From an uncultured Pseudomonadota bacterium (GTDB lineage: Bacteria > Pseudomonadota > Alphaproteobacteria > Acetobacterales > Acetobacteraceae): a DNA stretch of 64,000 bases. Every line of letters starts with the position of its first letter. Position 1 is the stretch's first letter. The notes below the pieces were generated by a model, which was not told the DNA's origin, made no database searches, and saw nothing but the letters and a program-made list of their open reading frames with translations. Below, one piece after another: positions 13,043 through 16,212 of this stretch. The DNA lies in NCBI GenBank assembly GCA_963764525.1, contig CAVXTC010000029.1:143447-207446 (forward strand), read 5' to 3'. Position numbers and translations under genes: made by a program.

Positions 13043-13303
13043 ATGGGCGTCGGAAGTATCATCGGATATGTCATAGCTGTGGCGCTGATCGCATGGGCGC
13101 TGTGGCGGCGCGCGTATTCGGTGCGGGCGCAACGGATCGCCGGTAACCTGCAACTGGGCGATAATTCCGGAACCATCAATCAGACTTACTCGGGGGCAGC
13201 CAGGGAGCAGGCGCAGCCTGATCGGGTCGGCTGGGCGATCCTGATCATCGGCGTGCTGGTCGCCGTGGCACAACTGGCGCACGACATATTCTGGGCCAAG
13301 TGA
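13043..13303 (+). CDS. small two-TM membrane protein (86 aa) with a G/N/Q-rich loop motif shared with the downstream STAND NTPase
   Basis: ATG at 13043. TM1 GSIIGYVIAVALIAWALW, loop ..RIAGNLQLGDNSGTINQTYSG.., TM2 VGWAILIIGVLVAVAQLAHDIFW. Stop TGA 13301-13303 overlaps the NTPase start (GTGATG). I recognise no family. Support comes from coupling and the shared motif. Confidence 0.55.
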   Translation: MGVGSIIGYVIAVALIAWALWRRAYSVRAQRIAGNLQLGDNSGTINQTYSGAAREQAQPDRVGWAILIIGVLVAVAQLAHDIFWAK

Positions 13304-15859
13304 TGCTGGGCTGGCTGTTCGGACGATCGAATCGCCTGCGCGCTCGTGATCTCGTTGGTAACGTCGTGGTGGGCGGCAACACCGGAATCATTTATCAGAT
13401 TTCCGGCGACGGCCCGCCACCGGCGCCGCCAACCCTGCACTGGGCCGAGGCGCTGCCGCCGCCGGGCTCGCCGTTCGAGCTGTTCAACCTGCTGTCCTGG
13501 AAGTTCCGGCTGGCGCGCGACCTGCTCGGGCGCGATGCGGAGAAACGTGAGCTGCTCGATTGGGCGCGGAACGGCCCGAGGGTCCGCATCCGGTTTCTTA
13601 TAGGCCCGGGCGGGTCGGGCAAGACGCGGCTGGCCGCGGAGTTCGCCGAAGCGCTGACCGGATGGCACGCGGGTTTCGTTCCGCTCGATACCGGGGCGAC
13701 GCTGCCGCTGTCGCGGCGGGGCCTGCTTGTCATTCTCGATTATCCGGAGGCCTGGCGCGAACCGGTCCGCTCACTGCTGCGAGAGGCCGCGCGCGCGGGC
13801 CAGCCGGCCGCGCCGATCCGGATTCTTCTGCTCAGCCGTCGGCCGCTGGCCGAGTGGCGGGAGGAAATCCTGAACTGCGGCGCTTCGACCCTGTGCGATG
13901 CACAGGAGCTCGGGATCGGCCCGCTGGATCGCGACGCAGCCGCGGATGTGTTCCACCGGGCGGTGGCTCGGCTGGCGGCGCATCGTCGGCTGGCAGCGCC
14001 GCGGATCGACAACAGCGCGATCGAAGCCTGGATCAACCAGAATCCCGCCCTGCATGGCCTGCCGCTGCTGACCATCGCCGCGGCAATTCATTTCGTGGAC
14101 CGGCCGGGACGCGCGTTGGGACTTGACGCCGCGGGGATTGTCGATGCGTTGGTCGAACGGGAGCGCCCGCAGCTTGACCGCACCGGTCGGTCGGTCGGGT
14201 TGGGTGAGCTTGGCGCGTCGCGGCTGGTTGGACTGTCGGCGCTGCGGGACGGCCTCGATGCGCCGGCGATCCGACGGCTGGTCGCGCCGGAGCTTGAACT
14301 CGGACTGCCGGATGCGGGCCGGGTTGTCAACGCCTTGCGGGATTCCGGCTGGTGGCACGCGGAGCGTCTGTCCGCGCCGGCCCCGGACATCGTTGCGGCC
14401 GAGTTGCTGCGCCAGGTGCTGGTCGCTGCGGAGGATCGCGGGCACGAATGGGTGTGGGCCTGCTTGTCCGATCCCGGCGCCGTGCAGATTGAGTTGCTCG
14501 ATCGCCGGATGCACGACATGGTGACGCTGCGTGGTCCGGACGAGCGGACTTTGCAGCGCCTCATGATTGCTGCGGTAACCGGCCAGGCTGCGCGCGCGTG
14601 GGCGTGGGCTGGCTTCTCTGATTCCGAAGTGGGTGGATTTCGGCTGAGCCCGGTTTCCGTAGCTATCGGCCACGAGCTGCTGGCGGCAACAGACGCTGCT
14701 GGGGAGGAGCGAGCGGGCATTCTCAACAACCTGTCGAATCATCTGAGCGAAGCCGGCGACGGCGCGGGCGCGCTGGCGGCGATCCGCGAGGCGGTGGAGA
14801 TCCGTCGCCGGCTGGCGCAGGAGACCCCGGCGCGCTTCGCCCCCGATCTCGCGACGAGCCTCAACAACCTGTCGCTCCGTCTGAGCGATGCCGGCGACGG
14901 CGCGGGCGCGCTGGCGGCGATCCGCGAGGCGGCGGACATCTATCGCCGGCTGGCGCAGGAGACCCCGGCGCGCTTCGCCCCCGATCTCGCGATGAGCCTC
15001 AACAACCTGTCGCTCCGTCTGAGCGATGCCGGCGACGGCGCGGGCGCGCTGGCGGCGATCCGCGAGGCGGTGGAGATCTGTCGCCGGCTGGCGCAGGACG
15101 ACCCCGGCGCGCTTCGCCCCCAATCTCGCGAGGAGCCTCAACAACCTGTCGCTCCGGTCTGAGCGATGCCGGCGACGGCGCGGGCGCGCTGGCGGCGATC
15201 CGCGAGGCGACGGACATCTATCGCCGGCTGGCGCAGGAGACCCCGGCGCGCTTCGCCCCCGATCTCGCGAGGAGCCTCAACAACCTATCGCTCAGTCTGA
15301 GCGATGCCGGCGACGGCGCGGGCGCGCTGGCGGCGATCCGCGAGGCGGTGGACACCTATCGCCGGCTGGCGCAGGAGACCCCGGCACGCTTCGCCCCCGA
15401 TCTCGCGACCAGCCTTAACACCCTGTCGGTCCATCTGAGCGATGCCAGCGACGGCGCGGGCGCGCTGGCGGCGATCCGCGAGGCGGTGGAGATCCGTCGC
15501 CGGCTGGCGCAGGAGACCCCGGCGCGCTTCGCCCCCGATCTCGCGACCAGCCTCAACAACCTGTCGCTCCGTCTGAGCGATGCCGGCGACGGCGCGGGCG
15601 CGCTGGCGGCGATCCGCGAGGCGGTGGAATCCGTCGCCGGCTGGCGCAGGAGACCCCGGCGCGCTTCGCCCCCGATCTCGCGACCAGCCTCAACAACCTG
15701 TCGCTCCGTCTGAGCGATGCCGGCGACGGCGCGGGCGCGCTGGCGGCGATCCGCGAGGCGGTGGAGATCCGTCGCCGGCTGGCGCAGGAGACCCCGGCGC
15801 GCTTCGCAGCGGCACTCGAGCGCAGCCTGGTTATCCTGTCTCGCCTGGACACGCCCTGA
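13300..15859 (+). CDS. STAND (NB-ARC-like) P-loop NTPase with C-terminal 46-aa TPR-type repeat array; no recognisable N-terminal effector domain; three frame shifts inside the repeats
   Basis: Walker A GPGGSGKTRLAAEF, Walker B LLVILDYPE, ILLLSRR, GxP-like LHGLPLLTIAAAI. Then eight LNNLSxxLSDAGDGAGALAAIREAxxxxRRLAQETPARFAPDLAxS units. Single-nt indels at ~15099 (+1), ~15157 (+1) and ~15628 (-1) link ORFs 13300..15162 and 15348..15713 and the final frame ending ..LVILSRLDTP-TGA (15857-15859). Confidence 0.8.
14722..15830 (+). repeat. eight near-identical 138-bp tandem coding repeats (TPR-type units of the STAND NTPase)
   Basis: Unit starts (ctcaacaacctg..) at 14722, 14860, 14998, 15137, 15276, 15414, 15552 and 15689. 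The period is 138 bp except where single-nt indels occur. Confidence 0.9.
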
Positions 15860-16119
15860 CGCGCCGTTCAACAGAATTGTATTTGCGAGAGAAACTGTTT
15901 CGGCGCGGATCGCCCATTCGTCATGCCCTGAACGCGCATGGGTCCTACAGAAAGAAATATGAACCGCAGAGGCGCGGAGGACGCGGAGAAGGGTCTCTGT
16001 GCCTCTGCGGCTCTGTGGTTGATCTTCTGCTTGCTTTATTGCTGCGTACGGGTCCCGAACCGAGGAGTTTTTGAGAACTTGTTTCGTATCTTAGCGACTT
16101 CATGCGGAGTCGCCGGGAC

Positions 16120-16212
16120 GCGCTGGGTTCCCGCTTCCGCGGGAATGACGGCGCTTCCGCGGGAATGACGGCACTTCCGCGGAATGATGGGCTCCCGCGG
16201 GAATGACGTTAC
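16120..16212. repeat. REP-like repeat cluster, family A
   Basis: ctgggttcccgcttccgcgggaatgacg followed by three degenerate tandem copies (gcgcttccgcgggaatgacg, gcacttccgcggaatgatg, ggctcccgcgggaatgacg). Confidence 0.7.

Follow-up and report, generated by a model that had tools for sequence, protein, structure and literature searches.

A predicted two-helix membrane protein and an adjacent STAND-like NTPase share a co-varying motif in Acetobacteraceae: a candidate amyloid-signalling gene pair

Here, we report a pair of adjacent, collinear genes in a 64,000-nucleotide stretch of DNA (the window; contig CAVXTC010000029.1 of GenBank assembly GCA_963764525.1, positions 143,447 to 207,446, forward strand) from an uncultured bacterium of the Acetobacteraceae. 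The upstream gene encodes a small protein of 86 residues with two predicted transmembrane (TM) helices, and the downstream gene encodes a STAND-like NTPase with a C-terminal array of tetratricopeptide repeats (TPR). A motif of about 24 residues, rich in Gly, Asn, Val and Ile, lies between the two helices of the small protein and again at the extreme N terminus of the NTPase. An earlier reading of the window (the original prediction) had proposed the two genes as a candidate signalling pair of NOD-like receptor (NLR) type; we describe the locus, its relatives, the co-variation of the two motifs, and the explanations that these allow.

The gene pair at the locus

The features of the pair are as follows (window coordinates; all on the forward strand).

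13043..13303, +, small open reading frame (ORF), 86 residues, candidate membrane effector (ORF and translation, MGVGSIIGYVIAVALIAWALWRRAYSVRAQRIAGNLQLGDNSGTINQTYSGAAREQAQPDRVGWAILIIGVLVAVAQLAHDIFWAK)
13049..13120, +, TM helix 1 (TM1), residues 3 to 26 (AlphaFold2 helix; Kyte-Doolittle 17-residue windows >1.9 for residues 1 to 22)
13124..13195, +, effector-side motif RAQRIAGNLQLGDNSGTINQTYSG, residues 28 to 51, between the helices (matches the NTPase N terminus)
13223..13294, +, TM helix 2 (TM2), residues 61 to 84 (AlphaFold2 helix with pLDDT 80 to 89; hydropathy; family alignments)
13300..13305, +, gene junction GTGATG, in which the TGA stop (13301-13303) and an ATG (13303-13305) share one base (sequence)
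13303..15162, +, NTPase ORF as it stands, 619 residues from ATG, with the N-terminal motif, a Pro-rich linker, a P-loop nucleotide-binding oligomerisation domain (NOD), and the first three intact TPR units
13339..13410, +, receptor-side motif RARDLVGNVVVGGNTGIIYQISGD, NTPase residues 14 to 37 (local alignment to the small protein; modelled beta hairpin)
13411..13473, +, Gly/Pro-rich linker GPPPAPPTLHWAEALPPPGSP from motif to NOD (sequence; GxGPPPxPP conserved in homologues)
13603..13626, +, Walker A, GPGGSGKT (G102, G104, G105, G107 and K108 invariant in the NTPase alignment)
14722..15860, +, TPR sensor array of eight 138-nucleotide (46-residue) units with 94% DNA identity (Tandem Repeats Finder; unit-by-unit comparison)

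The hexamer GTGATG is present at the junction as originally described, and its one-base TGATG overlap suggests translational coupling. The NTPase likely starts at ATG 13303, rather than at GTG 13300, because its homologues begin MPGWLF or MMRGL and the database protein is 619 residues long.

The small protein has a simple plan (TM1, a basic loop carrying the motif, a variable linker, and a highly conserved TM2). The loop was modelled as coil, disordered in the monomer (AlphaFold2, 32 sequences; pLDDT 52 to 59), and it probably faces the cytoplasm, since it holds six Lys or Arg residues (positive-inside rule). Family alignments show TM2 as the best-conserved region (PDRVAWAIxIVGVLIAAAQLAHD) and columns G34, G39, G43 and Q47 of the motif as nearly invariant. 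No match to the small protein was found in Pfam, NCBIfam or PADLOC. Its relatives formed 4 clusters in a single-sequence search, 111 clusters (90% identity) in a profile search, and 110 clusters (50% identity, E ≤ 1e-3, 57 of them with E ≤ 1e-10) in an exhaustive hidden Markov model search of 1.84 billion representatives, with source labels of Acetobacteraceae, Rhodopila and Stellaceae. They are standalone proteins of about 70 to 125 residues on a common plan (TM1, basic stretch, motif, variable P/A/S/G-rich linker, strongly conserved TM2), and the motif is internal, between the two TM helices, in every family member seen. The exceptions to the standalone plan are one fused gene call (P0008), two repeat proteins (P0210 and P0220), and a few truncated ORFs. 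The two repeat proteins were rejected as family members, being unrelated and matching the motif columns by composition, and an all-in-one fusion of the two-helix module to the NTPase was found in none of the 110 representatives, P0008 being a frameshifted gene call. One further sequence, P0138 (81 residues, 9 member sequences, contig of 587 bp), carries the motif near its N terminus and one C-terminal TM helix, without TM1; either its gene call is truncated or the effector exists here in a tail-anchored form.

Pairwise ratios of nonsynonymous to synonymous substitution rates (dN/dS) of the small ORF were 0.18 to 0.36. Together with the size of the family (about 110 clusters at 50% identity), these ratios rule out a spurious or noncoding ORF and bear out the reading of it as a protein-coding gene; by its sequence evolution, it is a real gene under purifying selection.

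The NTPase matched AAA_16 (2.2e-8), TPR_10 (9.8e-19) and TPR_12 (6.5e-8) in Pfam, and its Walker A and LDYPE motifs are intact and invariant. In an AlphaFold2 model of residues 1 to 467 (15 sequences; pLDDT 87.4, pTM 0.88), residues 1 to 12 were disordered and were followed by the motif, a P-loop alpha/beta domain and helical domains; the motif was modelled as a beta hairpin (strands 18 to 25 and 29 to 33, pLDDT about 70). The closest PDB folds (Foldseek) were tomato NRC3, MalT, the NRC1 NB-ARC, the NRC2 resistosome and EfAvs5, with TM-scores of only 0.3 to 0.5 and with ORC/Cdc6 and RFC AAA+ close behind. A sequence-profile search of the PDB returned TPR matches (best KLC1 and KLC2) and weak P-loop matches. 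Because the TM-scores are modest and the sequence profiles show only TPRs and a weak P-loop, the modelled domain is called STAND-like here, rather than NB-ARC. The domain had at first been described as NB-ARC-like, a description that holds at the level of the modelled fold and is unseen by sequence, where Pfam returned only AAA_16 and the two TPR families. No effector domain was found in the NTPase by Pfam or in the model, and N-terminal of the NOD there are only 35 residues of motif and linker, so an effector in trans would be needed.

High internal conservation of repeats is a feature of fungal and bacterial NLRs, which the TPR array recalls; near-identical TPR repeats in variable number occur in the NTPase homologues too. 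Three-frame translation showed that three 1-nucleotide indels break the array in the window (an extra base near 15099, an extra G near 15157, and a missing base after 15628). The ORF consequently ends early, at 15162, with the ancestral stop at 15858-15860, and correction of the three indels yields an 851-residue ORF ending ...ALERSLVILSRLDTP, the C terminus of the family. The window copy is either a decaying gene or the product of an assembly or polishing error in the repeats.

The shared motif and its co-variation between partners

The two segments first aligned were residues 31 to 51 of the small-protein loop (RIAGNLQLGDNSGTINQTYSG, nucleotides 13133 to 13195) and NTPase residues 17 to 37, numbered from GTG 13300 (DLVGNVVVGGNTGIIYQISGD, nucleotides 13348 to 13410). 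When the sequence was re-read, both strings and their ungapped alignment, with seven identities (G, N, G, N, G, I, Q), were correct as the original prediction gave them. The similarity reaches upstream of this 21-residue segment (...W.L..R....RAR; LIAWALWRRAYSVRAQRIAGN... against MLGW-LFGRSNRLRARDLVGN...), making a shared block of ~24 to 30 residues in which the tail of a hydrophobic segment leads into a basic RxR segment and from there into the motif.

The similarity exceeds that of shuffled controls, as the proposal of a common motif demands. Aligned with the first 60 residues of the NTPase, the small protein gave a local BLOSUM62 score of 61 against a shuffle mean of 23.8 (standard deviation, 4.3), and none of 2,000 shuffles reached 61. 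No shuffle of 5,000 reached the observed score when the loop was compared with the first 40 NTPase residues, and 0 to 2 of 2,000 did so when the small protein was compared with the whole NTPase. Chance similarity of the two motifs is ruled out by these shuffles. Relative to background (effector side/NTPase side), the motifs are enriched in N (3.2/2.2), V (2.2/3.1), G (2.3/2.7), I (1.5/2.4) and Q (1.3/1.2) and depleted in K (0.4/0.2), P (0.1/0.06) and L (0.09/0.25). Both segments had also been singled out as AT-rich; their GC content is indeed lower than that of the window (0.556 and 0.540 versus 0.662), but by only ~1.5 standard deviations from the mean, and this follows from their Asn, Ile and Tyr codons.

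Related loci were expected to keep the small ORF if the two genes work as a pair, and they do. An ORF of 85 to 97 residues lies directly upstream of the NTPase gene in 18/18 loci examined (the window, L001-3, L004-6, L007, L008/9, L010, L011, L012, L013, L014, L015 [a Rhodopila metagenome-assembled genome, MAG], L083, L084, L085, L086-88, P0008, and two known by gene table), and all 16 loci with sequence show the two-helix layout and the motif on both partners; the two loci read from gene tables only have the same arrangement of genes. Of the 17 related loci with coordinates, 15 have genes that overlap or abut (by 1 to 4 nucleotides in 13, by 13 in L084, and by 19 in L014), the exceptions being L011, with an 80-nucleotide gap, and P0008, with its single fused gene call. 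NTPase homologues down to 36 to 39% identity retain the motif h-x-G-[NIVC]-h-h-h-G-[GD]-[NV]-x-G-h-h-x-Q (h, hydrophobic; x, any residue), followed by GxGPPPxPP. No third conserved gene was found across the loci, whose flanks vary or are housekeeping; partial synteny to the window is seen in L008 (luciferase-like monooxygenase and ABC permeases) and in L007 (MR_MLE).

Co-variation of the two motifs was assessed over 24 aligned motif columns in 16 cognate pairs, with the pairing permuted 100,000 times. Cognate partners shared 10.94 identities of 24 versus 8.98 for non-cognate partners, a difference reached by 3 of the 100,000 permutations, and scored 51.7 versus 36.6 by BLOSUM62, which none reached. 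With 13 non-redundant pairs, the result was 0/100,000 for both measures. The two motifs thus co-vary, as a cognate pair should, whereas independent divergence of two old paralogous segments would be expected to leave cognate and non-cognate similarity equal. Individual lineages show the same change on both sides: L087 has KARDISSSVVINGD... and RSRDVVRSIIINGD... (S-VV-INGD and S-II-INGD), with the otherwise nearly invariant first Gly gone and INGD present in both partners; L010 has GNF, L012 has G.M.QN, L011 has NAG and L084 has QNY on both sides; and the partners in L014 follow RDISG[IV]VV.GGN.G.IIQN, with 15/24 residues identical. Such identity-preserving changes fit the prediction of in-register stacking, and ordinary hetero-pairing does not require them. 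Recent gene conversion was considered as the source of cognate similarity and ruled out because synonymous sites have diverged: the same codon is used in only 66/137 identical residues, and the nucleotide identity of the two segments is 40 to 65%.

More distantly related NTPases (about 33% identity, 970 to 1,090 residues) are found on two conjugative Rhizobium plasmids and in Novispirillum itersonii, at the following positions.

L089, 2935-6705, Rhizobium ruizarguesonis plasmid CP140817.1
L090, 2941-6268, Rhizobium sp. SL42 plasmid NZ_CP063399.1, with a caspase-family gene nearby
L017, 2971-6601, Novispirillum itersonii

These three are without the upstream two-helix ORF and carry a different N-terminal G/N/V/I motif (e.g., MDDEMRSITVKNILAFGNVSISG). 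Immediately downstream of each lies a gene for a protein of 137 to 150 residues; these proteins are mutually homologous, two of them begin MEPATF or MEIAIW, and their last 40 residues match the N terminus of the neighbouring NTPase (shuffle p = 0.013, 0.005 and 0.023; Fisher-combined, about 1e-4). These two starts recall the "MEPIS" N terminus of Bab, Bell and HeLo domains (bioRxiv 10.1101/2024.11.07.622273). The partners had no match in Pfam, PADLOC or PDB, and their putative identity as Bell domains is read from the MEPxx-type N terminus only. By sequence, the Rhizobium and Novispirillum pairs apparently have the canonical Bell/BASS-like layout, with the effector motif at the C terminus, which suggests that this NTPase clade swaps motif-plus-effector cassettes. 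A Rhodoferax MAG contig (L018, 545-1552) holds another NTPase relative (29% identity) with a different short N-terminal G/N/I/Q-rich segment, ADGNDNIIIQIVGDGNTVVSG; the contig, 1.5 kb long, shows no partner ORF. N-terminal beta-prone peptides may be general to the clade.

Proposed mechanism and alternative explanations

On balance, we lean towards a two-gene cell-death or defence module in which an NLR-like sensor activates a minimal two-helix effector through a homotypic, probably cross-beta, motif. A ligand at the TPR array would trigger nucleotide-dependent oligomerisation of the NTPase, gathering the N-terminal motifs, which would fold cooperatively into a cross-beta nucleus (amyloid-like, in-register). 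This nucleus would template the same-type motif in the small-protein loops, and the growing polymer would pack the TM hairpins side by side, so that the conserved TM2 (W, Q, H and D positions) would form or provoke a membrane lesion and the cell would be killed or arrested. We infer the loop topology, oligomerisation, cross-beta templating, membrane damage and immune role in this scheme. A broader proposal, which we put forward tentatively and regard as possible rather than probable, is that the small proteins constitute an undescribed class of amyloid-gated effectors, each a pre-inserted two-helix hairpin made lethal when the NTPase templates its loop motif, and that the clade exchanges this class with Bell-like effectors as a cassette.

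Several observations weigh against a templated cell-death module. The cross-beta assembly is drawn from analogy and from the type of co-variation, and an internal position with a tether at each end is unprecedented for such motifs and may be sterically awkward for a 4.8-angstrom stack beside TM helices. The window pair itself is among the least similar of the 16 (9/24 identical; the cognate ranks 9 to 10 of 15), and a one-residue insertion interrupts the motif in three small proteins and one NTPase. About 6 to 7 of the 16 lineages have a disrupted NTPase (window, L001, L004, L012, L085, L086 and P0008). One such disruption, in L004 (1301-1400) and also in L005 and L006 (an Acetobacteraceae MAG and two ENA assemblies), is an in-frame TAA at the invariant Gln codon of the NTPase motif (GNVVVGGNSGIIN*LYGDG), with the small ORF intact. 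The small ORF is likewise intact in the other NTPase-disrupted lineages, except P0008, where it is damaged; given an intact ORF beside a broken NTPase, the small protein could have a function of its own. Further, PADLOC returned nothing significant on the locus (best match mad8, E = 0.0058), the pair sits amid housekeeping genes with conserved synteny and no recognisable defence island, and no match to the small protein was found in PLSDB plasmids or IMG/VR viral contigs.

The best-surviving alternative, which we judge unlikely, makes the small protein a constitutive membrane tether: the two motifs would join by strand augmentation into a finite beta sheet that is not amyloid, and the small protein would anchor or localise the NTPase at the inner membrane, or hold it inactive, the output of the NTPase lying elsewhere. 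The modelling of the NTPase motif as an ordinary beta hairpin agrees with this, a small protein already embedded in the membrane needs no conformational "arming", and the first 12 NTPase residues (MLGWLFGRSNRL) resemble the end of TM1 and the basic stretch, which fits a membrane-proximal position. Against this reading, the NTPase lacks an effector domain, and the loci have no third gene in common. Moreover, the co-variation preserves residue identity, which pairing in a finite hetero-sheet would not require; the motif composition is of the amyloid signalling type; and more distant relatives appear to pair the NTPase with a motif-matched, Bell-like effector.

Both motifs might instead be extended peptides that bind in the NTPase's own TPR groove; the N-terminal copy would then be a pseudo-ligand that inhibits its own protein, and the loop copy a ligand that competes with it or is recruited. 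TPR_10/TPR_12 arrays of the kinesin-light-chain (KLC) type do bind peptides, the best PDB sequence matches are KLC1 and KLC2, and two motifs tracking one groove would co-vary as well. However, the array is built of near-identical units (94% DNA identity) whose number varies, as is usual in fast-evolving NLR sensors rather than in a fixed groove, and both motifs are kept in lineages with truncated TPR arrays. The usual ligands of KLC-like TPRs are acidic or aromatic, unlike the G/N/V/I-rich, beta-prone motif here. We consider this explanation distinctly improbable. That the NTPase N terminus is a relic of partial duplication or fission of the upstream gene, or a chance likeness, with the motif now functionless, is highly implausible: although the two segments match collinearly from the end of TM1 through the basic stretch to the motif, which suggests their common descent, chance is excluded by the shuffles, the motif is conserved down to 36 to 39% NTPase identity, and cognates co-vary despite diverged synonymous sites.

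In the window, the pair is flanked upstream by a luciferase-like monooxygenase and ABC permeases and downstream by an MFS transporter, rpmI/rplT and an MR_MLE enzyme. An association of the small gene with mobile elements was considered and set aside on the PLSDB and IMG/VR searches. Rfam gave no family at gathering score in the 64-kb window and no tRNA, rRNA or riboswitch match, and a promoter and terminator scan yielded nothing useful. Between the NTPase remnant and an ORF resembling an MFS transporter, four tandem copies of a 20-bp unit, CGCTTCCGCGGGAATGACGG, occupy 16132-16208; this intergenic array may be a REP-like (repetitive extragenic palindromic) element or a binding-site array. In the L008/L009 lineage, genes for a MoxR-type AAA ATPase and a VWA_CoxE protein lie directly 3' of the pair (L008, 8261-10284), and the 3' end of a gene for a 1,215-residue AAA_16 protein lies ~5 kb upstream (L008, 1-410). 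A conflict-system neighbourhood, absent from the window, is possible there.

Comparison with known systems and implications

BASS motifs are about 25 residues long, with an excess of Q, N, G, V and I and a deficit of K, P and L; BASS pairs have collinear, often overlapping genes and are nearly confined to multicellular Actinobacteria and Cyanobacteria (Dyrka et al. 2020, bioRxiv 10.1101/2020.01.06.895854). The present pair resembles the Bell/NLR pairs of BASS1-10 in its adjacent, collinear, overlapping genes (TGATG at 13301-13305), in its TPR NTPase with a motif of ~20 to 25 residues at the extreme N terminus (residues 14 to 37), in the recurrence of that motif on a small protein with a gene of its own, with cognates more alike than the family average, and in motifs that are G/N/Q/V/I-rich and K/P/L-poor. 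The resemblance is one of composition and layout. Unlike those pairs, the effector here is a bare two-helix hairpin and not a Bell five-helix bundle, with no known TIR, CHAT or hydrolase domain; its motif lies between the helices and not at the effector C terminus; the hosts are Alphaproteobacteria and not Actinobacteria or Cyanobacteria; and the NOD is unrecognised by the Pfam NB-ARC or NACHT models.

A closer precedent in host type is Bab/Agp, in which Agp activates Bab through a 20-residue motif (BASS11), with abortive infection as the outcome in E. coli (Ibarlosa et al., bioRxiv 10.1101/2024.11.07.622273). Like the present pair, Bab/Agp comes from a unicellular Gram-negative host and has two genes, a small membrane-targeting executioner (a candidate one in the present locus), a TPR sensor with an N-terminal motif of ~20 residues, and proposed templating. 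Unlike the two-helix hairpin, however, Bab is soluble, its helical, Bell-like domain having a hydrophobic helix at the N terminus and the motif at the C terminus, and Bab/Agp lies in prophage defence hotspots, whereas the present locus is chromosomal and among housekeeping genes.

The fungal HET-S/NWD2, HRAM, sigma and PP pairs follow the logic proposed here, with an NLR N-terminal motif templating the membrane-targeting effector of an adjacent gene; they also share NLR repeats of very high internal conservation and a central GN in a hydrophobic strand. RDLVGNVVV resembles RVQLGNVVT of HET-s, a likeness that we take as a resemblance and not as demonstrated homology. The HET-S effector differs in having two pseudo-repeats C-terminal to a HeLo domain and in inserting into the membrane only after activation, whereas the small protein has a single motif and is, by prediction, already embedded. 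Avs and bNACHT proteins likewise have a STAND-like NOD and, C-terminal to it, a sensor made of repeats (EfAvs5 was among the best fold matches), but, unlike the present NTPase, they carry the effector domain in cis. SLATT proteins and the TM effectors of CBASS and Pycsar offer the parallel of a small TM protein as the presumed membrane-disrupting output; the effectors of nucleotide signalling are activated by a diffusible ligand, whereas the present pair would rely on a shared peptide motif.

The original prediction had treated both the internal-motif arrangement and such a pair in a unicellular, high-GC alphaproteobacterium as undescribed. The first part stands, in that no description of a two-helix or internal-motif variant was found in a limited literature set (papers on BASS, on probabilistic context-free grammars [PCFG], on ASMscan, and on conflict systems from the Aravind group, and a 2026 survey of bacterial STAND sensors); as to the second, amyloid signalling in a unicellular bacterium is already known from Bab/Agp. 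What is new here is the two-helix effector with an internal motif, not the lifestyle of the host. Published screens, anchored on Bell C termini, would have missed it.

If the proposed mechanism is right, amyloid (prion-like) signal transduction would extend to a new effector topology and to the Alphaproteobacteria, and a motif of ~20 residues would be a portable adaptor that can be wired into the loop of a membrane protein. The small protein would then be the smallest known executioner of an NLR pathway, and its motif the first signalling amyloid motif to lie inside a protein, with a membrane tether on either side. The pair would also offer a small, tractable system (an 86-residue effector, a single motif, and co-varying pairs as natural specificity mutants) for the step from cross-beta polymer to membrane damage. 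The finding suggests that searches anchored on the Bell C terminus have missed effectors with internal motifs, and it flags about 110 clusters of "hypothetical proteins" as probable cell-death effectors.

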